A program made the translations under genes and the position numbers. The notes below the pieces were generated by a model. It did no database searches. It was given only the letters and a program-made list of their open reading frames with translations, and was not told the origin of the DNA. DNA of 59,478 nucleotides from a virus (taxonomy: Duplodnaviria; Caudoviricetes), in IMG/VR virus record IMGVR_UViG_3300045935_000034, positions 1 through 59,478 of that record; one strand, given 5' to 3'. Shown piece by piece: positions 1 through 44,011 of this stretch (position 1 is the first letter of the stretch; each line of letters opens with the position of its first letter).

Positions 1-59
1 TCGCCTCTTTCACGTCCGTGGTGCTCAGCCCGGCTGATCCCAGGCTGGGCGCCACGCTC

Positions 60-160
60 GTCACCCGGCCGGGGGTAGGGGCGGTCGGATCGTCAGGACT
101 GAGGCCGCAAAAGACCGCAGCGTTAGTGACGATGGCACCCTGACAAATCATTTGCGTTGC
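60..160. other. Probable cos/packaging-initiation region
   Basis: GGGGGTAGGGGCGGTCGGATC...GACCGC lies between the HNH gene (window end, if circular) and the ParB/terminase genes, the usual layout of HK97-type cos phages. Exact cut site not determinable. Confidence 0.45.
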
Positions 161-197
161 TAACGACGTTTAACGCTGGTCGACAGGAGGCCAGAAC

Positions 198-692
198 ATG
201 ACGGTGACCTCGCAGTCCTACGACGCGAAGGCTGATATTTCAGAGCTGGTCGAGCACCCGCGCAACCCGCGCCGGGGAGTCGACGCCGTGGTGTCACGCT
301 CGATCACCGCGAACGGGTTCTATGGTGCGATCATCGCGCACAGCGCGACCGGCTACGTCCTCGCGGGACACACCCGCCGTCGCGCTCTGCTCGCGCAGGG
401 CACGACCATCGCCCCGGTGCTGTGGGTCGAGTGCGACGACCGCACCGCGACGCGCATCCTGCTCGCCGACAACAAAACCGCAGAGCTGGCCGAGTGGGAT
501 AACGACATGCTCGCCGAGATGCTGCGCGACATGGGCGAGACTGAGTACCTCGGCGCGGGCTTCACGACCTACGACCTCGAAGCGCTCGCGCGTCAGCTCG
601 ACGAGTTCGAGCCGGAGCTGACCGACGAGCGCGCCGACGTCGCGAAGAAGGAGATCACGTGCCCCGCGTGCAGTCACGTGTGGACGGTCTGA
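198..692 (+). CDS. ParB/Srx N-terminal domain protein with C-terminal Zn ribbon
   Basis: HPRNPR..SITANGF..AGHTR..LADNK motifs; ends CPAC; AGGAGG RBS. Confidence 0.85.
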   Translation: MTVTSQSYDAKADISELVEHPRNPRRGVDAVVSRSITANGFYGAIIAHSATGYVLAGHTRRRALLAQGTTIAPVLWVECDDRTATRILLADNKTAELAEWDNDMLAEMLRDMGETEYLGAGFTTYDLEALARQLDEFEPELTDERADVAKKEITCPACSHVWTV

Positions 693-693
693 C

Positions 694-1401
694 ATGAACA
701 TCACCATCGCGCCGTGTTCGTACGCGACAGCGAACAAGGCAGTCCAGCGCTGGCACTATTCGCGGCTCATGCCGCGCGGATTCAAGGTGATCTACGCCGC
801 ATTCGAGGATGCCCGGTTTGTCGGCGTGTTCGTGTTCGGCGTCGGTGTCGGCAAAGGCACGCCGGTCAGCCACGTCGAAGTCCGCGACGCGCTCGAACTC
901 CAGCGCATCGCGTTCACCGACCACGCCGCGCCGATCTCTCAGCACATGGCCGCAGCCGTCCGCAGACTGCGCGCACATCACAGCCTGCGCCTGCTCGTCT
1001 CCTACGCCGACCCGTTCCACGGACACCACGGCGGGATCTACCAGGCGGCAGGCTGGACCTACGTCGGCACGTCCGGGCCGTCGAACATGTACCGCGCGCC
1101 CAACGGTGAACTGAAACACTCCCGCGTCGTCACGCCGACCGGCTATAACCGCCAGTTCGGCTCGATAAAACGCGCATGGAAGTCCGACGTCTTCACGAAA
1201 GTGATCATGCCGGGCAAGCATCTCTACATACTCGGGCTCGACCGGCCGACGCGACGCGCAGTGAGCGCGCTCGCCAGGCCGTATCCGCCCGCTCGCGTGC
1301 TAGGTCTCGACGGTGAGACGGCTGGGTTCCGCCCGGCAGGTGTCGGTTCGACTCCGGCAGCGCGCTCAGAACACGACCCGGTCGCCGCGGAAGCGTCCTA
1401 G
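694..1401 (+). CDS. mom: Mom-like (GNAT-fold) adenine hypermodification enzyme
   Basis: RWHYS, ELQR, LVSYADPFHGHHGGIYQAAGWTYVG, GKHLY and PYP motifs typical of Mu Mom homologues. Confidence 0.85.
   Translation: MNITIAPCSYATANKAVQRWHYSRLMPRGFKVIYAAFEDARFVGVFVFGVGVGKGTPVSHVEVRDALELQRIAFTDHAAPISQHMAAAVRRLRAHHSLRLLVSYADPFHGHHGGIYQAAGWTYVGTSGPSNMYRAPNGELKHSRVVTPTGYNRQFGSIKRAWKSDVFTKVIMPGKHLYILGLDRPTRRAVSALARPYPPARVLGLDGETAGFRPAGVGSTPAARSEHDPVAAEAS
1295..1366 (+). tRNA. tRNA-Gly(UCC)-like element, non-canonical, inside mom CDS
   Basis: Acceptor GCGTGCT/AGCGCGC, D-stem GTCT/AGAC with GG in loop, anticodon stem GCTGG/CCGGC with TCC at 1328-1330, T-arm GTCGG-TTCGACT-CCGGC, discriminator T1366; no encoded CCA. 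Confidence 0.85.
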
Positions 1402-1557
1402 ACTCGAACGCCCGGGTTGCGCTCAGCCAGCCGTCGACGCCCTACGTCGTGCGCTGCTGGCGCTCACAGCGCCCTGGGACGCCGGAGAGGGCCAGGGCAC
1501 ACGTGCACGCACTGGCCCTCTCCATGGCCACGCACGCGCGAGATAAGCTCCCCGCTC

Positions 1558-1737
1558 ATGAGCGACGAGACAGCCCGCACGTGCGCCAAGTGTGGCGAGC
1601 CGCTGACCGCCGACGCGCGAGCCGCAGCGATCCTGTGCGCGTCGTGCGTCGAGCGACTGGGCGCCCCGTACTGGGACACTCGCGACGTCGAGCCGGACGG
1701 CAACGGCAGCGCGCGCGTCGTCGCCAGCGCACAGTAA
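1558..1737 (+). CDS. Small Zn-ribbon protein
   Basis: CAKC...CASC in a 59-aa ORF; weak RBS. Confidence 0.45.
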   Translation: MSDETARTCAKCGEPLTADARAAAILCASCVERLGAPYWDTRDVEPDGNGSARVVASAQ

Positions 1738-1742
1738 CCAGA

Positions 1743-1775
1743 CGCCAGCGCTACGTCACTGGCCGGCACAGGGCC
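1743..1775 (+). repeat. 33-bp direct repeat copy A (core CGTCACTGGCCGGCAC)
   Basis: CGCCAGCGCTACGTCACTGGCCGGCACAGGGCC; one mismatch to 2537-2569. Confidence 0.95.
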
Positions 1776-1921
1776 GACCGGGCAGGCGCCGCGCGAGCAC
1801 CGGGCCACCCGCCCGGCTGGGAGCGCCATGGGCGGCTTCGCCCTACTGCGCTCGTGCACGCGTATCGCCTCGCGGCGACCTCGCCCGGGTCGACGTCCCA
1901 CCCGCCGCAGAACGACCGCAC

Positions 1922-1957
1922 AAAAAAAGGCTGAGCGCGTATCGCGCTCAGCCTTTT
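1922..1957. terminator. Bidirectional intrinsic terminator
   Basis: A7-GGCTGAGCGCG-TAT-CGCGCTCAGCC-T4 between convergent genes. Confidence 0.9.
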
Positions 1958-1972
1958 CGTGTCGGTCTAGCT

Positions 1973-2377
1973 TCAGGCGTTGGCCTGCGCGTCCTCGGCG
2001 TAGAAGTCGCGGATGCCCTGAAGGCGCGAAAGGCGCTCGTTCATCGTGTCGACAAGCACGGTGTCACCCCGGCGGCTCGCACGCCACCTGCGGTCACGCG
2101 TGATCTTGATCAGCTTCGCGCACTCGATGGCGTCGGCGGGCACGTCGTCGCTGTCGGTCGACAGTTTCGCGACGGGCTTCGGCGCGGCCTTCGTCGACTT
2201 GCTCGACTTCGCAGCGGGCTTCGCAGCGGGCTTGGCGGGCGTAGCTTTCGCGGCGGGCTTCGCGGCGGGCTTGCTCGGCTTCGCTGCGGCCTTCGGCGCT
2301 GCGGTCGGCGCTGACTTCGCGTCGCGGCGTGCAGCGGCCCGAGCGGCTTTTTCAGTCTCGGTCAGGCGAACAGTCAT
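1973..2377 (-). CDS. Lys/Ala/Pro-rich histone H1-like protein
   Basis: KPAAK/PAAK repeats; GGGAG RBS; own promoter and terminator. Confidence 0.75.
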   Translation of the reverse strand: MTVRLTETEKAARAAARRDAKSAPTAAPKAAAKPSKPAAKPAAKATPAKPAAKPAAKSSKSTKAAPKPVAKLSTDSDDVPADAIECAKLIKITRDRRWRASRRGDTVLVDTMNERLSRLQGIRDFYAEDAQANA

Positions 2378-2451
2378 GGCGTGCTCCCTAGCTCGGCGTC
2401 ACTCGTCGCGCCCTACGCGACTCGCTGACGCTGTCTCTCTCGTGCTTCTCC

Positions 2452-2481
2452 AAGCTACGGCCGCACTCCGGGCCCTCGCAA
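2452..2481 (-). promoter_or_regulatory. Sigma70/HrdB-like promoter for the leftward gene
   Basis: TTGCGA-18 nt-TAGCTT on the minus strand, CGGCCG just upstream of the -10. Confidence 0.55.
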
Positions 2482-2536
2482 CTCTCTATCCACAATGGAC
2501 TCGGTGTCCCCGGATACACAGGCGCAGAGTCACGAC

Positions 2537-2569
2537 CGCCAGCGCTACGTGACTGGCCGGCACAGGGCC
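2537..2569 (+). repeat. 33-bp direct repeat copy B
   Basis: CGCCAGCGCTACGTGACTGGCCGGCACAGGGCC. Confidence 0.95.
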
Positions 2570-2624
2570 TACGTTCCGCGGCGAGCCGTGAACTTCCGCT
2601 ATATATAAGAGAAACAGGTGTGAT

Positions 2625-3095
2625 ATGGCCAAGCCAGGAGTGAGGCCGATGCCGACGCCTCTTCGGCTACTCACCGGAGATCAGCACAAGAACAGGTACA
2701 ACACCGACGAGCCAGCTCCCCGCGCGAGCGGTCCAGCGCTGCCCGCAGAGATCGGCGACGAGGTCGCCGAGGTATGGCATCGCGTCGTGGGCGAGCTGAC
2801 CGCAATGGGGATCGCTTACGCTGCTGACGCCGACGCACTGCGGTGCTTCTGTGAAGCCGTCGTCGTGCACCGCAAGGCGTCGTTCTTGCTCGCGCGCAGT
2901 CCCGTGCTCGTCAAGGGCACGCTCGGCGGCATGGTCCGCAACCCCGCGATTCAGGTCCAGCGCGACGCGGCGACGACAATCCGCCAGTTCGCTGCTGAGT
3001 TCGGGCTGACGCCATCTTCGCGCAGCACCATTCACGCGCAGGAGACCGGCACGAGCGAAGCCGACAACCCCTTCACCGGAACCGGCACGGGCTGA
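2625..3095 (+). CDS. terS: Terminase small subunit (P27 family)
   Basis: PMPTPLRLLTG...NPAI...EFGLTPSSR; directly upstream of terL. Confidence 0.92.
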   Translation: MAKPGVRPMPTPLRLLTGDQHKNRYNTDEPAPRASGPALPAEIGDEVAEVWHRVVGELTAMGIAYAADADALRCFCEAVVVHRKASFLLARSPVLVKGTLGGMVRNPAIQVQRDAATTIRQFAAEFGLTPSSRSTIHAQETGTSEADNPFTGTGTG

Positions 3096-3123
3096 GTGAC
3101 GCGACAGGGCGGGAGTCACGCCC

Positions 3124-4866
3124 ATGGCACGAACCGTTAAGCCACAGGACATCCCGAAAGTCGTTCCGCCGAGCGCGGCTGAGCTGGAGCGGCTACACCT
3201 CTCGCCCGAAGTCGGCTGGTATCTCGTGTCGCGGGGTATCGCGTTGCCGGACTGCCCGCCCAAGATCAAAACCCCTGAGGGCGGGCAGCTCGCCGGGGCC
3301 CGGTTCGACGCCGCGCGTGTCGACAGAGTGCTCAGCGTGTTCGCTCGACTGCGGCACACACAGGGCAAGTGGGCGGGCGAGCCGTTCATACCCGACTCGT
3401 GGCAGGTCGCCTACATCCTCGCGCCCGTGTTCGGCTGGGTGGCGCGCAACGATGACGGTATCTGGGCTCGTGTCACACGCCGCGTGTACATCGACATCCC
3501 GCGTAAGAACGGCAAGACGTCGCTCGCCGGTGGCATCGCGACATACCTCACGACCGCCGATGGTGAGGCCGGGGCGCAGGTCTACGCCGTGGCGAGTAGC
3601 AAAGATCAGGCCCGGTTTTGCTTCGATCCGGTGAAGAAAATCGCCGAGTCGTCGCCCGCATTGACGCCCTATGTCAAGACTTTGCAGTCACGGATCATCC
3701 ATCAGCCGTCCGGATCGTACTTCGCTGTCGTCTCGCGCGTCGCAGATGTCTTGCACGGGGCCAATATCTCCGGTGCGATCATCGATGAACTGCACATCCA
3801 CAAGACTCCCGACCTGGTCGAGGCAGTCGAGACCGGTACCGGCTCGCGCACTCAGCCGCTGATTCTGATCATCACGACTGCCGACGACGGTCGTCAGGCG
3901 ACGATCTACGCGCGGCGGCGGCACTACGTCGAGCAGCTCGCGCGTGGCGCGCTCACCGACCCCACGATGTACGGGGTGGTGTGGGCGGCAGACAAGGACG
4001 CCGACGCGTTCGTCGAGTCGACCTGGCGCGCTGCTAACCCGGGGTTCGGTATCTCGCCGTCCGCCGCGTATCTCGCGAGCGCGGCGAACGAGGCCAAGAA
4101 CTCACCGGCCGATCTGGCGAAGTTCCTGCGACTGCACTTGGGTTTGCGGACCAAGCAAGAGACGCGGTATCTCGACCTTGAGGTGTGGGACCGCAACGCA
4201 TCGATGGTCAATGAACAGAAGCTCGTCGGGCGCCACTGCTATGGCGGGCTCGACCTCGCCTCGTCGAGCGACCTCTGTGCACTCGCGTACGCCTTCCCCG
4301 ACGGGCTCGGCGGGCACGATCTCTTGTGGCGAATGTGGGCCCCTGAGGGCGCGCTCAGGAAGCTCGACGAGCGCACAGCGGGAGAGTCGCGTGTGTGGGT
4401 GGCGCGTGGCCTGCTGATCGTCACGCCCGGCGACGTCACCGATTACGACTACATCCGTTCACAGATAAATCTCGACGCCGAAAAGTTCGGCATTCGCGAA
4501 ATTGCTTACGACCCGTGGAACGCGTCGCAGCTCGTGACAGACCTCGGCAACGACGGTATATCGATGGTCACGATGCGCCAGGGATTCGCGTCGATGTCCG
4601 GCCCGACAAAAGAGTTTCAGCGGCTCATGCTCGAAGGCACGTCCGAGGTACCGCGGCTTCGGCATGGCGGTAACCCCGCCGTGCGCTGGCAGGTCGACAA
4701 CCTCGCGGTTGAAATGGACGCTGCGGGCAACGTGAAGCCCAGTAAGAAAAACAGCGGAGACAAGATTGACGCGATTGTCGCCGCGATCATGGCGCTGTCC
4801 CGCGCCGTGCACTATGTCGAGCCGCGCAGGTCCGCGTACGCCGACAACGATCTGGAGGTCGTGTGA
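3124..4866 (+). CDS. terL: Terminase large subunit (cos type)
   Basis: Walker A PRKNGKT, IIDELH, GGLDLAS, YDPWN, KIDAIVA. Confidence 0.97.
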   Translation: MARTVKPQDIPKVVPPSAAELERLHLSPEVGWYLVSRGIALPDCPPKIKTPEGGQLAGARFDAARVDRVLSVFARLRHTQGKWAGEPFIPDSWQVAYILAPVFGWVARNDDGIWARVTRRVYIDIPRKNGKTSLAGGIATYLTTADGEAGAQVYAVASSKDQARFCFDPVKKIAESSPALTPYVKTLQSRIIHQPSGSYFAVVSRVADVLHGANISGAIIDELHIHKTPDLVEAVETGTGSRTQPLILIITTADDGRQATIYARRRHYVEQLARGALTDPTMYGVVWAADKDADAFVESTWRAANPGFGISPSAAYLASAANEAKNSPADLAKFLRLHLGLRTKQETRYLDLEVWDRNASMVNEQKLVGRHCYGGLDLASSSDLCALAYAFPDGLGGHDLLWRMWAPEGALRKLDERTAGESRVWVARGLLIVTPGDVTDYDYIRSQINLDAEKFGIREIAYDPWNASQLVTDLGNDGISMVTMRQGFASMSGPTKEFQRLMLEGTSEVPRLRHGGNPAVRWQVDNLAVEMDAAGNVKPSKKNSGDKIDAIVAAIMALSRAVHYVEPRRSAYADNDLEVV

Positions 4867-5147
4867 TCCTCGCAATCCTGATCGTGGTCGCATCTGTGGC
4901 GATTCTCGCGACGGGATACCTGATCGCAGAGCGACTGCTCGACGCGAGCACTGTCGTGCGCCGTCGAGTGGTTGTGAACCTCTCTGACGGGCGCGCATTC
5001 TCCGGCGTGCTGACCGCGCGCCGCCGCAGGCTGCTCGTGCTGCGCAACGCCGAGCTACTGGAAAAGGGACTGTCGCCCGTCGCTATCGATGGAGTCGTCG
5101 TGATCGAGCGTGACCGAGTCGAGTTCGTCCAGGCAGCGGGAGGCTGA
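4863..5147 (+). CDS. Small membrane-anchored, Sm-like hypothetical protein
   Basis: N-terminal TM helix; VVVNLSDGRAFSGVL; overlaps terL stop. Confidence 0.7.
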   Translation: MILAILIVVASVAILATGYLIAERLLDASTVVRRRVVVNLSDGRAFSGVLTARRRRLLVLRNAELLEKGLSPVAIDGVVVIERDRVEFVQAAGG

Positions 5148-5149
5148 CA

Positions 5150-7075
5150 ATGTCGTTCGTCATCTCCCAGGGGCAGATGTCCAAAGTGGAACGGACCCTG
5201 TTCCCGCACGCGCCGATGGTGCGGCTCGACGACAATCTCGTCGAAGACTACGCGCAGATATGGCGCAGTCAGCCCAACGTCCGCACCGTGGTCGACTTCC
5301 TCGCGCGCAACATCGCGCAGTTGCCCATCCAGGTGTTCCGCCGCGTGTCCGACACGGACCGTGAACGGCTCAACGATCACCCGCTCGCGCAGCTTCTCAA
5401 GCGCCCCAACTACTTCACGACCCACTACCGCGCGATTGACAGCCTGATTCACGATATGGGCATCTATGACAATGCGTTCTGGGTCAAGGTCAGGCCTGAC
5501 AGTGGCGGGCAAATGACCGGGCTCGTGCGTGTCGACCCGCGCATGGTGACCCCGATCGGCACGACCTTTATCACGAGCACCGACTACATGATTCAGGGCA
5601 ACGGCGGATATCTCACGGTGCCCGCCGATCAGATGGTGCACTTCCGGGGCTATAACCCCGACAACATGCGTTGGGGCTGCTCGCCTATCGAGACGCTGCG
5701 CCGCGTGCTGATCGAAGAGTTCCAGGCTGGGGTGTACCGCGAGCAGTTGTGGCGCAACAGCGCCCGCATGTCCGGCTATCTCTCGCGACCGACTGACGCG
5801 CCGATGTGGGGCAAGGACGACCGGGGCCGGTTCCGTGAGCAGTGGCAAGCCCAGTACGCGGGCTCAGACGGCACGCACGCGGGAGGCACGCCGATTCTCG
5901 AAGACGGCATGTCATTCACGCAGGCCGCCGTCACACCCGAGCAGGCGCAGTACCTTGAGAATCGCAAGCTCACCCGCGAGGAAGTCGCTGCGGCATACCA
6001 CATCCCGCTCCCGATGGTCGGCATCCTCGATCATGCGACGTACTCGAACATGAACCAGGCCCACGCCCAGCTCTATCAGGACACGCTCGGCCCTTGGTTT
6101 CAGCAGCTCTCTGAGGACATCGAACTCCAGTTGCTACCGGAGTTCGACGACAACGACGGCGTGTACGTCGAGTTCAACATTGCTGCGAAGCTCGCGGGCT
6201 CGTTCGAGGAGCAGGCCGCAGTTCTACAATCTGCTGTCGGCGCGCCGTACATGCTGCGCAACGAGGCACGTGCGCGACTCAACCTGCCAGAGCTCGACGG
6301 CGGCAATGAACTCGTCACGCCGCTCAATGTCCTGATCGGCGGACAGGCTAGCCCAACCGACAGCGCCCCGCCGGCAAACCCGCTCTCCGCACCGAAACAT
6401 GTTGTGCCCCTTCATAAAGCGCGCGCGTCGGTCGCCGACGTCGACAAGATCAAGGCGTTGATGGCTGCGTTTTTCGCGCGTCAGCACAAGGCCATCTCGT
6501 CCGCGGTGGGTGCAACGCCGGACCCGTCGATCGGCGATGTGTTCGACGACGAACGCTGGGACAACGAACTGACCGGGGACCTGTTCAAGACAGCGGTTCC
6601 CGTCGCGTCGGGCATCGGCCGGGCCGTGCTGGAACTGCTCGGGCTCGACACAGTGTATGACGCGGTGCGCACACATTCCTACCTGCACACGTTCGCCGAG
6701 CTTGCTGCTACCGGGATCAACGACACCACGAAAGCGGACGTCACCGAGAAGCTCACTGCCGACGAGCCGTTGGTAGCGCTACAGGAATTGTTCGACGGCT
6801 ACCAGGGCGGACGTGCCGATCAGATCGGCGAGACGCAGGGCACTGCACTGTCAGGTTTCGGCAGTGAGGAAGCCGTGAAGCAGACCGGCATGGACGGCAG
6901 CAAGACGTGGCAAGTCACGTCGAAAAACCCGCGTGCGTCACATGCCGCGATGGACGGCGAAACCGTTGGGGTGGAAGAGGAATTCTCGAACGGTGCCAAG
7001 TGGCCGGGAGACTCCTCGCTTGATGTCGACGAGCGCGCCAACTGCTCGTGTGAGGTCGTCATGTCCGTCTCGTGA
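5150..7075 (+). CDS. HK97-type portal fused to a MuF-like head morphogenesis domain
   Basis: Portal motifs (IAQLP, GCSPIE, ILEDGM, NEARARLNLP); C-terminal KTW..PRASH..DGE..WPGD..NCSC. Confidence 0.92.
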   Translation: MSFVISQGQMSKVERTLFPHAPMVRLDDNLVEDYAQIWRSQPNVRTVVDFLARNIAQLPIQVFRRVSDTDRERLNDHPLAQLLKRPNYFTTHYRAIDSLIHDMGIYDNAFWVKVRPDSGGQMTGLVRVDPRMVTPIGTTFITSTDYMIQGNGGYLTVPADQMVHFRGYNPDNMRWGCSPIETLRRVLIEEFQAGVYREQLWRNSARMSGYLSRPTDAPMWGKDDRGRFREQWQAQYAGSDGTHAGGTPILEDGMSFTQAAVTPEQAQYLENRKLTREEVAAAYHIPLPMVGILDHATYSNMNQAHAQLYQDTLGPWFQQLSEDIELQLLPEFDDNDGVYVEFNIAAKLAGSFEEQAAVLQSAVGAPYMLRNEARARLNLPELDGGNELVTPLNVLIGGQASPTDSAPPANPLSAPKHVVPLHKARASVADVDKIKALMAAFFARQHKAISSAVGATPDPSIGDVFDDERWDNELTGDLFKTAVPVASGIGRAVLELLGLDTVYDAVRTHSYLHTFAELAATGINDTTKADVTEKLTADEPLVALQELFDGYQGGRADQIGETQGTALSGFGSEEAVKQTGMDGSKTWQVTSKNPRASHAAMDGETVGVEEEFSNGAKWPGDSSLDVDERANCSCEVVMSVS

Positions 7076-42093: not shown

Positions 42094-43746
42094 TTACTGC
42101 GAAGTGACAACCGGCAGTGCCCCTGGCGGGGTCAGCTGGACGCGCAGGTCGAAGCCCTTGAGTCGCGTCATGCCCGCAGGTCGTTGCACGTCGCGAGAGG
42201 GGATGATGGTGACTGTCATCAGTGACTGCACGATGGCGCGCCTGTATTCAATGTCGGTGATCGTGTCGTATGCAGCGACCGGGTCAGCAGCGTCAGCAAC
42301 GCCGAGCAATGGTGATGTGGATGCAACGGTGCCGAGTTCGTAGTCCACCGCAGCGAGCTTGACTTTCAGTGGCTCGATTGCCCTCAGCATCTCCCTGAGT
42401 GCGATCAGCTCCTTGGCATACGCGTCGGCGCACTCGTCGATCAGTACACGTAGCTCAGTCGCACGTCGTCTCAGCCCGGCCACATCGACTTCTGGGTGAC
42501 TCTGTACCAGCTTCGCGCCCTGTTCGCGCAGAATCCGGCGCACTGCCTCGTTTACTACCCTGTCAGCGATATGCGTAGCTATGGACATGTGCGCACCCGC
42601 GCGGCATCGATACGTTCGATACGCGCCCTTGGGCGCCATGGACTTGCCTGTCATCATCAGGGCACCGCAGTTGCCGCAACGGTAGACACCGTTTCCGAGC
42701 TGTGGATTGTTGCCAGCTCTCGCGGTGATCCGCTCTGGGTCATTGAGCTTGGCCCGCAGTGCTCGCCACGTGTCTTCACTGATAATGGCGGGCCACTGTG
42801 CGGTGGTGAGTACTCGGTCAGACCCATCATTGACGAGGACGATTCCGGCATTGCGAGGGTTCAGCATGATGTTCCTGACAGACAGTCGGTGCCAGTGCCC
42901 GCGAATAATCGGTATGCCCCGGTCTGCGAACTCCCATACGACTTCGCGCGGCGACTGTATGTCACGTCCAGATGGGGGCGGTGCGTACATCCGTTCGACA
43001 GCCTCATAGATCAGCGCGGCCTCGTCGGGGCGTTCGTTGCTTGGCGTCTTGGCGACAAGCTCGGCGAGCATTGGCCTCGACCATGTGCACGGCGGGCAAT
43101 GCTCGTCCCATTTCGCAACGAGGCTTCGCAGGGACCTTCCGCTGAGCAGGTGCTCAGCGCCGTCCCTGATCCATCTTGCTTCGCGTTCACGTATCCGCAT
43201 TCCGTGGCGCTCATACCCGAACGCGCGTTGCCCTCCCATGAACTCGCCGGTCTTGCGTTTGCCGACCTTCGAGTCGATAACGCGCTCGGCGTCGCGCTCA
43301 GCCTCCGCAGCATCCCATGCTGCCAGCGTCCGGGCGACCGCGCGGCCATCTGCCGTGTTCAGGTTGAAACTGGGGCTCCGAATGAACCGGTACTCGATTG
43401 CCGCAGTCTCGGCGAGTTCAATCTGGTCCTCATGCTCACGCGGGCGGCGAGTGAGTCGCGCGCTGGTGTAGGCATAGATGATGCTGCCCGGGTCGCTGCG
43501 CGCGTCGCGCAAGAGGCGGTCATACTGCGGTCGCTTCTTTTTCGAGTGCTTCGATGCGCCGATGTCGTTGTCGCGATATGAGTCGACGATCACCAGCGTG
43601 GGGTCCTTTTCTATTACCGAGATCAGGCCGTTGTGCTGGAGTTCCACGCCGAGCTCGCGCCCCTCCCTGTCTCTGCTGATCCGCTCATACAAGCGAACGT
43701 GACGTGGCGTTGCGATCATTAACGGGTGCGGTGCGGCAGTGGTCAT
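42094..43746 (-). CDS. int: Large serine recombinase (phiRv1-type integrase); alternative start GTG 43758
   Basis: YERISRD..GV..Q, DNDIGAS..RPQY, RLTRRP, AFGY, NPRNAG, WPAII, CGNCG..YRC. Confidence 0.95.
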   Translation of the reverse strand: MTTAAPHPLMIATPRHVRLYERISRDREGRELGVELQHNGLISVIEKDPTLVIVDSYRDNDIGASKHSKKKRPQYDRLLRDARSDPGSIIYAYTSARLTRRPREHEDQIELAETAAIEYRFIRSPSFNLNTADGRAVARTLAAWDAAEAERDAERVIDSKVGKRKTGEFMGGQRAFGYERHGMRIREREARWIRDGAEHLLSGRSLRSLVAKWDEHCPPCTWSRPMLAELVAKTPSNERPDEAALIYEAVERMYAPPPSGRDIQSPREVVWEFADRGIPIIRGHWHRLSVRNIMLNPRNAGIVLVNDGSDRVLTTAQWPAIISEDTWRALRAKLNDPERITARAGNNPQLGNGVYRCGNCGALMMTGKSMAPKGAYRTYRCRAGAHMSIATHIADRVVNEAVRRILREQGAKLVQSHPEVDVAGLRRRATELRVLIDECADAYAKELIALREMLRAIEPLKVKLAAVDYELGTVASTSPLLGVADAADPVAAYDTITDIEYRRAIVQSLMTVTIIPSRDVQRPAGMTRLKGFDLRVQLTPPGALPVVTSQ

Positions 43747-44011
43747 GGCGCGAGTCACTTTCAGTCATACGTCAGACGCGAGGCGTGGTTGCCTGGCGGT
43801 TGACGCATACTGTAGTTAATGAACAACGTCGAGACAAACTTGCACAACGACACGATGCTGTGCGCTTAGACTGACACGACGTCGTGGACTGATGTTTGTG
43901 CAGCTCAGCGCGCATATGCGCTGAATCGCGCAGGGCGTTACCTGGCGAGTAACGTGAGCCCGGCTGTGAGCGTCACAGCAGCCTGACCAGCCCCGATAGG
44001 TAGTTGCGCAC

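Follow-up and report, generated by a model that had tools for sequence, protein, structure and literature searches.

A glycine tRNA-like gene recurs at the 3' end of mom genes and may serve as the glycyl donor for their DNA-modifying product

Here, we describe a tRNA-Gly(UCC)-like gene that overlaps the 3' end of a mom gene, which encodes a DNA modification protein, in a complete phage record (IMG/VR record IMGVR_UViG_3300045935_000034), and we report that glycine-tRNA-like elements recur at this position in most of the Mom loci that we collected. The window analyzed is the entire virus record (59,478 nucleotides (nt); CheckV completeness 100%). For Mom of phage Mu, transfer of glycine from Gly-tRNA-Gly to the N6 of adenine in double-stranded DNA has been described, Gly-tRNA-Ala being rejected (PMC13219725). 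Across the family of elements, conservation keeps the marks read by glycyl-tRNA synthetase (GlyRS) and loosens those read by the ribosome, a pattern that, as far as sequences can tell, fits a mom-linked glycyl carrier. We consider it reasonably probable that the mom-linked gene provides the glycyl donor for Mom, as one part of a three-part cassette that also contains a ParB-like gene.

A tRNA-Gly gene overlaps the end of the window mom gene

Run on the whole window, ARAGORN called one tRNA, a tRNA-Gly(tcc) at 1293-1367 on the plus strand, and Rfam family RF00005 matched 1295-1366 on the same strand over its full model (positions 1-71) with 35.6 bits (gathering threshold 29; E 1e-5). This is the sole tRNA match of the complete phage record. 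The gene, counted from position 1 to the discriminator, occupies 1295-1366 (+) and scores 79.4 bits with our covariance model R1, introduced below. Its anticodon U34 C35 C36 lies at 1328-1330. The determinants described for bacterial GlyRS (G1:C72, C2:G71, C35, C36 and U73; PMC10464925) form a complete set in the element, with G1:C72 at 1295/1365, C2:G71 at 1296/1364, C35 at 1329, C36 at 1330 and U73 at 1366; G3:C70, a D-loop GG and the T loop TTCGACT are present as well. CCA is not encoded, the acceptor stem being followed by TCAG. Measured against the canonical elongator core (U8, A14, A21), the element departs at all three positions, with A8 (1302), C14 (1308) and G21, whereas U33 and the TTC T loop are those of a canonical elongator tRNA. 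Its oddities are limited to A8, the C14:G21 pair and G32/C38 (1326/1332); the T stem contains G49-C65, U50.G64 and C51-G63. A first-pass annotation made from the letters of the stretch had described a 72-nt cloverleaf tRNA-Gly(UCC) on the strand of mom, with the glycine identity set, G3:C70, A8, C14, G32/C38, U50.G64, the D-loop GG and TTCGA. Both programs call this gene and each of these bases is in place, so that the observation is confirmed.

The ORF (open reading frame) at 694-1401 (235 amino acids) matches the Pfam family Mom, PF25680, over residues 3-198 (E 2.6e-36; 125.6 bits, cut-off 27.1) and PHROG 1384, "Mom-like DNA modification protein" (E 1.5e-40). Its P196-Y197-P198 motif is encoded at 1279-1287, and position 1 of the tRNA (1295) is the second base of codon 201. 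The tRNA thus starts 7 nt past the last conserved Mom residue, and ~35 codons lie over or beyond it up to the first in-frame stop at 1399-1401, with none earlier. In an AlphaFold2 model, the predicted local distance difference test score (pLDDT) exceeds 90 for residues 1-201 and stays under 50 for residues 202-235, consistent with a read-through tail. Foldseek placed Mu Mom (8bv8) as the top match of the model, above generic GNATs (E 2e-11; template modeling score 0.60-0.68). On this modeling, the window mom gene is a Mom-family GNAT domain of ~200 residues (residues 1-199; 694-1290, +; PF25680, PHROG 1384, AlphaFold2 and Foldseek), followed by ~35 unstructured read-through codons over the tRNA gene (codons 200-235 and the stop TAG at 1399-1401; 1291-1401, +). 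Coordinates and tail pLDDT thereby bear out the further claim of the first-pass annotation that the last ~35 codons, after the PYP motif, look like read-through. The tail motif G-S-T-P of the window Mom is the translated T arm (GGTTCGACTCCG), and the common G-S-T-P and G-A-x-P tails among the Mom proteins of alignment A1 are likewise T-arm translations.

Glycine-tRNA-like elements recur at Mom 3' ends

Mom loci were gathered along two routes. A tblastn search with the Mom domain returned 55 of 50,697 phage records, four of which were inspected, and a profile built from an alignment of 29 Mom proteins gave the best 80 of 583 confirmed viral contigs and 57 genome contigs. A search with a single Mom protein had found one distant viral locus only, without an element. 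The resulting set of 143 loci (142 plus the window; ~0.70 Mb) covers phages, viral contigs and prophages of many phyla. On these loci, ARAGORN called 17 tRNAs, 16 of which are tRNA-Gly located -1 to +57 nt from the end of the Mom domain; elsewhere in the ~0.70 Mb of Mom flanks, it called no ordinary tRNA, bar one unassignable call. The latter (L025:1108-1188, +; "tRNA-???", four-letter anticodon gaag) lies 1.2 kb upstream of Mom and scores 25.8 bits with R1.

Covariance model R1 was built from 14 of the ARAGORN-called elements and alone gave a match at the 3' end of Mom in 75 of the 143 loci. A second, shorter class was found by reading ORF tails of 63-132 nt, and model R2 was built from it. 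With R1 and R2 combined, 105 of 143 loci have a glycine-tRNA-like element at the 3' end of Mom, and in 103 of these it shares the strand of mom; as the viral loci are enriched for relatives of the window Mom, 105 of 143 is not an unbiased family share. R2 matches are confined to Mom 3' ends, except for a second copy in L029 and an element on the 5' side in L140; apart from these two, off-site matches of R1 and R2 are few and weak (15-26 bits). The second copy in L029 (2023-2092, +), of the class without a D arm, lies 711 nt downstream of the first (1312-1381), both scoring 80.9 bits with R2, and could be a duplication or an assembly repeat. The L140 element (2415-2487, +) immediately precedes the Mom domain and falls within the part of ORF 2360-3103 that extends upstream of this domain; the Mom profile matches there only to position 127, and this Mom may be frameshifted. 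In L016, a T-arm-like stretch at 634-720 (GGTCGATTCC) without acceptor closure directly follows a Mom that stops 6 nt past its domain and may be a decayed element.

We had considered R1 as a family-specific detector and rejected it on finding that host chromosomal tRNA-Gly genes of five genomes score 52-61 bits; the case therefore rests on position and traits rather than on model scores. In 96 of 134 loci, a model-free pattern (GCG, at least 6 of 7 pairs closed, CGC and then T, with a span of 58-80 nt) started between -6 and +70 nt from the domain end. In the remainder of the loci, the same pattern occurred 1,267 times in 1,397,974 start positions (0.069 per 76 nt), corresponding to an approximately 10-fold enrichment at Mom. 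ARAGORN with default settings recovered 16 of the 105 elements, and Rfam at E <= 0.1 on L001-L005 saw only that of Microbacterium phage Appa, which means that standard finders miss most of them. The elements are mostly unannotated, and the mom ORFs are inflated by about 30-40 codons.

Individual reference phages illustrate the range. Appa has an annotated tRNA-Gly(ccc) 33 nt past the Mom gene on the opposite strand; its element (L002:3656-3728, -, identical to L013:3156-3228, -) scores 78.4 bits, encodes CCA and lies 58 nt downstream of mom. A second, weak tRNA-like match in Appa (L002:5243-5318, +; 24.7 bits) is found 1.6 kb further. Salinibacter phage B2_17 carries an annotated tRNA-Gly 33 nt past its Mom homolog (R1 70.9 bits). 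The Mom match of B2_17 (L005, ~2983-3572) falls into two pieces in different frames, the profile match ends at position 133 and the annotated coding sequence is short, which points to a frameshift or to faulty sequencing of this record. In Arthrobacter phage Sicarius2, a tRNA-Gly(tcc) that is not annotated overlaps the 3' part of an "acetyltransferase" gene at its end, and the element of Arthrobacter phage Shade (R1 74.3 bits) is unannotated and was missed by ARAGORN. Among five further reference phages, only cyanophage Pan3 has an element (34.2 bits, 7 nt past the domain).

These counts bear on whether the window element could be an integration-site remnant (attP or attB, the phage or bacterial attachment site, in a tRNA gene) or a cloverleaf that GC-rich coding sequence forms by chance. 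Phage integration into tRNA genes is frequent, and the folding energy of the window element is unremarkable, with a z-score of only -1.45 and 19 of 200 shuffled sequences folding equally well; its minimum free energy structure is not a cloverleaf, and the centroid retains the acceptor, D and anticodon arms. The element is, however, a complete tRNA and not a 3' half, it tracks Mom rather than integrases over 105 loci, with covariation, and its closure pattern is enriched roughly 10-fold over the rest of the loci. The window does encode a large serine integrase (42097-43758, -; PHROG 95, E 3.7e-68), from which we take the phage to be probably temperate, but it lies 41 kb from the tRNA, and the attachment-site reading was rejected on this ground. 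An origin as remnant or by chance appears extremely improbable.

Identity marks are kept and decoding marks are relaxed

For element anatomy, we reduced 106 elements to 97 distinct sequences; anticodons were machine-parsed in 77 of these and read by eye from the model alignments in the remaining 20. The discriminator is U73 in all 97. The acceptor starts with GCG in 93 and with GCC plus a compensating change in the other four, and NCC is centered in the anticodon hairpin of every parsed element (77/77) as well as in the 20 read by eye. The published GlyRS determinants are thus kept across the family. Position 74 is C in 87 of 97, and CCA is encoded in 69 of 97. Features on which decoding relies are handled differently: A8 occurs in 85 of 97 elements, U33 in 38 of the 77 parsed ones, and the T loop starts with TGC in 30, TTC in 26 and GGC in 13 of 95 classed elements. 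As a control, we examined 14 host tRNA-Gly genes from five prophage-bearing genomes; all of them (14/14) combine U8 and A14 with a TTC T loop.

Anticodons of the 97 elements are UCC (50), ACC (34), CCC (11), GCC (1) and one unclear case, as compared to GCC (6), UCC (4), CCC (4) and ACC (0) in the 14 host genes. To our knowledge, ACC is not a normal glycine anticodon in bacteria, which is backed here only by its count of 0/14 among the host genes. Position 34 is G in a single element, yet A in 34, likewise a transversion from U; this scarcity of G34 may reflect selection against reading the major glycine codons.

By architecture, the elements form three grades. Grade 1 (37 loci), the type of the window, is a full cloverleaf whose T arm is normal. 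Grade 2 (32 loci) is a cloverleaf whose T arm is of the GGCGG/CCGAC type with a bulged A, or with a G.A mismatch and one extra base. In grade 3 (35 loci), the element measures 64-67 nt and a ~12-nt linker replaces the D arm. The T arm of the D-arm-less elements can be read in two ways, either with a G50.A64 mismatch and one extra base or as a 5-bp stem with a bulged A, the latter from RNAalifold. In grade 1, positions 14 and 21 covary as a base pair: the 8/14/21 combination among 28 parseable elements is A-C-G in 17, A-U-A in five and the canonical U-A-A in one. The 14 rows of the full-cloverleaf class have 96.6% of their cells paired and compensatory changes in 16 of 21 pairs, a result that 0 of 500 shuffles equaled; these counts are biased towards the cloverleaf because ARAGORN chose these rows. 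In the D-arm-less class (25 elements), the acceptor stem is 100% paired and four of its seven pairs covary; from this short class, RNAalifold independently recovers both the acceptor and the T stem and also pairs the linker with the variable region over 2 bp.

Phages commonly carry tRNAs, and the window copy could accordingly be an ordinary elongator tRNA-Gly(UCC) that boosts decoding of GGA and GGG, its adjacency to mom being meaningless. Its regular 7-nt anticodon loop, U33, TTC T loop, D-loop GG and standard T stem would all suit this role, and GGA and GGG make up 133 of the 470 glycine codons in 10 window genes. The remaining 337, the commonest glycine codons, are those read by GCC, an anticodon that occurs in 1 of 97 elements. 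The explanation would also have to accommodate a phage with no other tRNA, and a set of 143 loci in which all 16 assignable tRNA calls are glycine and all sit at the Mom 3' end. In addition, relatives with ACC (34/97), non-U33, A8, G55 or no D arm stand against 14 of 14 canonical host genes. We thus regard an ordinary elongator as unlikely.

Overlap with the Mom reading frame, phylogeny and cassette context

The junction between Mom and element is tight. Measured from the last aligned Mom codon to element position 1 over the 97 distinct loci, the gap amounts to -1 nt in 25 loci and to +1 nt in 26, and 30 others have gaps of 0-10 nt. Position 1 is usually no more than one base away from the final conserved codon of Mom. 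The stop of the Mom frame lies past the element in 80 loci, inside it in 13 and ahead of it in four, which leaves 93 of 97 without a stop codon ahead of the element. In 85 of 102 cases, the Mom frame crosses the element without a stop, as compared to 95 of 204 for the other two frames, a difference that is suggestive only, as the loci are related.

Such an overlap would be expected if the element worked within the message, as a cis-acting tRNA-like structure of the mom mRNA that serves as a 3' stabilizer, as a processing signal or as a site at which Mom or GlyRS binds to regulate a toxic enzyme, with no donor acting in trans. The position of the stops and the open Mom frame fit this explanation, as do the tight regulation and toxicity described for Mu mom (PMC3378877, PMC6483171). 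Placement, however, varies while the GlyRS marks and the 3' CCA (encoded in 69/97) stay, which fits a free, chargeable RNA. Appa has its element 58 nt downstream, on the strand opposite to mom, and this element is still fully conserved, reaching 78.4 bits with CCA encoded, and the L140 element is 5' of mom; these two copies argue for a free RNA over a message-bound structure. A role purely in cis therefore seems decidedly unlikely to us.

A more speculative proposal, to which we assign a small chance, is that the overlap itself is the mechanism. A cut that frees the tRNA 5' end (by RNase P) or the CCA end would leave a mom mRNA without a stop codon, providing ratio control or a timer for a toxic enzyme. 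Each transcript would then yield either tailed Mom, or a glycyl carrier together with a non-stop message bound for tagging by transfer-messenger RNA (tmRNA). If this were true, the D-arm-less members of 64-67 nt would be the first known case, in bacteria and their phages, of minimal tRNAs that are charged by a synthetase but do not decode.

A FastTree phylogeny was built for 136 distinct Mom domains, with Mu as arbitrary root, and Moms with an element are spread all over this tree. Carriers include phages of Actinomycetota, of Salinibacter and of a cyanobacterium as well as contigs of more than ten phyla. Apart from a few singletons, element-free loci cluster in compact, nested clades (10 Pseudonocardiaceae prophages, six Enterobacterales, 10 Bacillota including phiEf11), a distribution that looks like repeated loss. 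Judged from this tree, the linkage of element and mom outlasts deep divergence. The window Mom groups with those of L006, L007 and L010, all with full cloverleaves (support 0.96). In 104 of the 143 loci, window included, the gene immediately upstream of Mom encodes a ParB-like nuclease domain, an arrangement that defines a conserved unit of ParB-like gene, Mom and tRNA-like element.

A proposed glycyl donor for Mom

From the gene, its position, its recurrence and its conservation pattern, all of which are observed, we infer a route that comprises transcription, processing, charging and use by Mom. In the window, the element RNA would be transcribed together with mom and matured in tRNA fashion. 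The host would add CCA, as it is not encoded, and host GlyRS would glycylate the RNA, given that the bacterial glycine identity set is kept. Mom would then move glycine from the charged RNA onto the N6 of adenine in the double-stranded phage DNA, as Mu Mom does. Linkage to mom would secure donor supply whenever the enzyme is made and, in many family members, the lost decoding features would keep the pool off elongation factor Tu (EF-Tu) and the ribosome. In the window Mom, H21, Y22, R71, D106 and Y116 align with H58, Y59, R111, D149 and Y159 of Mu Mom, which are described, together with S124 and R151, as needed for the Mu enzyme (PMC13219725). Mu S124 corresponds to window S84 only via alignment A1, the pairwise alignment being offset by two residues. 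The same account describes two metagenomic Mom homologs as active (PMC13219725).

Several points weigh against this assignment. Mu Mom is described as accepting all three E. coli glycine isoacceptors, and its authors consider it likely that it reads the acceptor end only and scavenges host tRNA (PMC13219725). As Mu Mom works with host isoacceptors, a private tRNA is not required in principle. No element was found with our models in Mu, phiEf11, VSiP and AS-sw, and three prophage clades are without one. The chemistry of the window Mom clade is assumed by analogy with Mu, to whose Mom this clade is ~22% identical; the essential Mu R151 aligns with F108 of the window Mom and is thus not conserved. 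Chargeability is not assured: the Lactiplantibacillus plantarum GlyRS, a single enzyme, is described as preferring a purine at position 4 and a pyrimidine at 69 and as needing the arms and the L shape (PMC10464925), and the window element has U4.G69 (1298/1362) instead of the preferred combination, with one class of elements lacking the D arm altogether. The window copy is the most canonical form of the family and could also decode GGA and GGG. A search of sequencing runs for the window stretch found it in only one DNA run, from a soil metagenome, which may be the source of the record, and listed no RNA run. The lack of specificity of R1, the enrichment of the viral loci and the choice of the cloverleaf rows, each given above with its numbers, count on the same side.

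The first-pass annotation had proposed a dedicated glycyl donor, chargeable but poor for ribosomes and co-transcribed with its enzyme, and had suggested scanning the 3' ends of Mom homologs for recurrent glycine anticodons with covariation. That scan came out positive, with the 105 loci above, and the work that the annotation had mentioned exists and describes the use of Gly-tRNA-Gly by Mu Mom (PMC13219725). Co-transcription would fit the window, where gene and element share a strand with no intervening stop or terminator pattern, and fails as a rule for the family, given the opposite-strand element of Appa. The claim of being poor for ribosomes is unsupported for the window copy, with its U33, TTC T loop and regular T stem, and rests on the family as a whole. 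Overall, the interpretation of a dedicated glycyl donor beside mom is supported.

Further features of the window

The gene ahead of mom, the first of the cassette (198-692, +), encodes a ParB-like nuclease domain. It matches PHROG 620, "ParB-like partition protein", with E 1e-31 and Pfam ParB_N weakly (E 0.086), and its stop lies 1 nt ahead of the mom start. A promoter and terminator scan of window positions 1-2700 called none. A GC-rich inverted repeat at 1474-1534, ~110 nt past the tRNA, has no T run and was not called as a terminator; its Rfam matches are sub-threshold and to microRNA families only. A megablast search of window positions 1-6000 against phages gave no match.

Comparison with known systems

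In our literature search, no paper connected a phage tRNA gene with mom; the papers on Mom and tRNA (including PMC13219725) and a jumbo-phage survey are silent on this point in their main texts, their supplements not being covered. In 2026, Mom became the first enzyme shown to use a charged tRNA to modify DNA, and was described as a scavenger of host tRNA. Should most mom genes come with a glycine carrier of their own, tRNA-dependent DNA hypermodification would be a self-contained, portable module, with consequences for predicting restriction-evading phages and for in vitro reconstitution. It would also represent a second, independent and far wider case of extra-translational tRNAs after those of the staphylococcal cell wall. 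The natural series from full cloverleaf to D-arm-less forms would then show which parts of a tRNA are needed by GlyRS and by a GNAT transferase, and it is open to tests in cultivable Arthrobacter, Microbacterium and Salinibacter phages.

The closest relative with a described function is Mu Mom (Silva et al., Nat Commun 2026, PMC13219725; PDB 8bv8; PF25680), which shares family and fold with the window Mom and most of whose key residues are kept there, R151 having no equivalent in the window clade. The two systems differ in the source of the tRNA: Mu has no tRNA-like element after mom and is said to scavenge host tRNA, whereas the window and most of its relatives (105/143) have a tRNA-Gly-like gene joined to mom.

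In function, the nearest parallel is provided by the non-proteinogenic (NP) tRNA-Gly species NP1-NP3 of staphylococci. These are described as having a TGC or TGT T loop, binding EF-Tu weakly and serving the Fem transferases FmhB, FemA and FemB; they are presented there as confined to staphylococci, with the weak T-stem pairs A49-U65, U50-A64 and A51-U63 (PMC7826273). They are charged by GlyRS and diverted from translation to a GNAT-fold transferase, as we propose by analogy for the Mom elements, and the T-loop change from TTC to TGC is also seen in 30 of the 95 classed Mom elements. The window copy, with TTC and none of the weak T-stem pairs, is no member of that lineage, and the resemblance would be one of function. 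NP tRNAs keep U8, whereas Mom-linked elements have A8. The glycine acceptor is a peptidoglycan precursor in the one case and, as proposed, DNA in the other, and the gene of the Mom element is physically joined to that of its enzyme.

Like ordinary phage tRNAs, the Mom elements are tRNA genes in a phage genome that ARAGORN or Rfam can detect; they differ in being single, always glycine and always at mom, and in their core, with A8 and a 14:21 pair. Reduced and tRNA-like RNAs are known from other settings, namely the D-arm-less tRNAs of mitochondria and the aminoacylatable tRNA-like structures at the 3' ends of plant-virus RNAs. The 64-67-nt class resembles the former in keeping acceptor, anticodon and T arms and in having a ~12-nt linker for the D arm, and the Mom elements resemble the latter in lying at the 3' end of a coding RNA with an encoded CCA, although they are proposed to act as free RNAs. 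What sets the Mom elements apart from both is that they are bacterial and phage-borne, carry glycine identity and are linked to a DNA-modifying enzyme.

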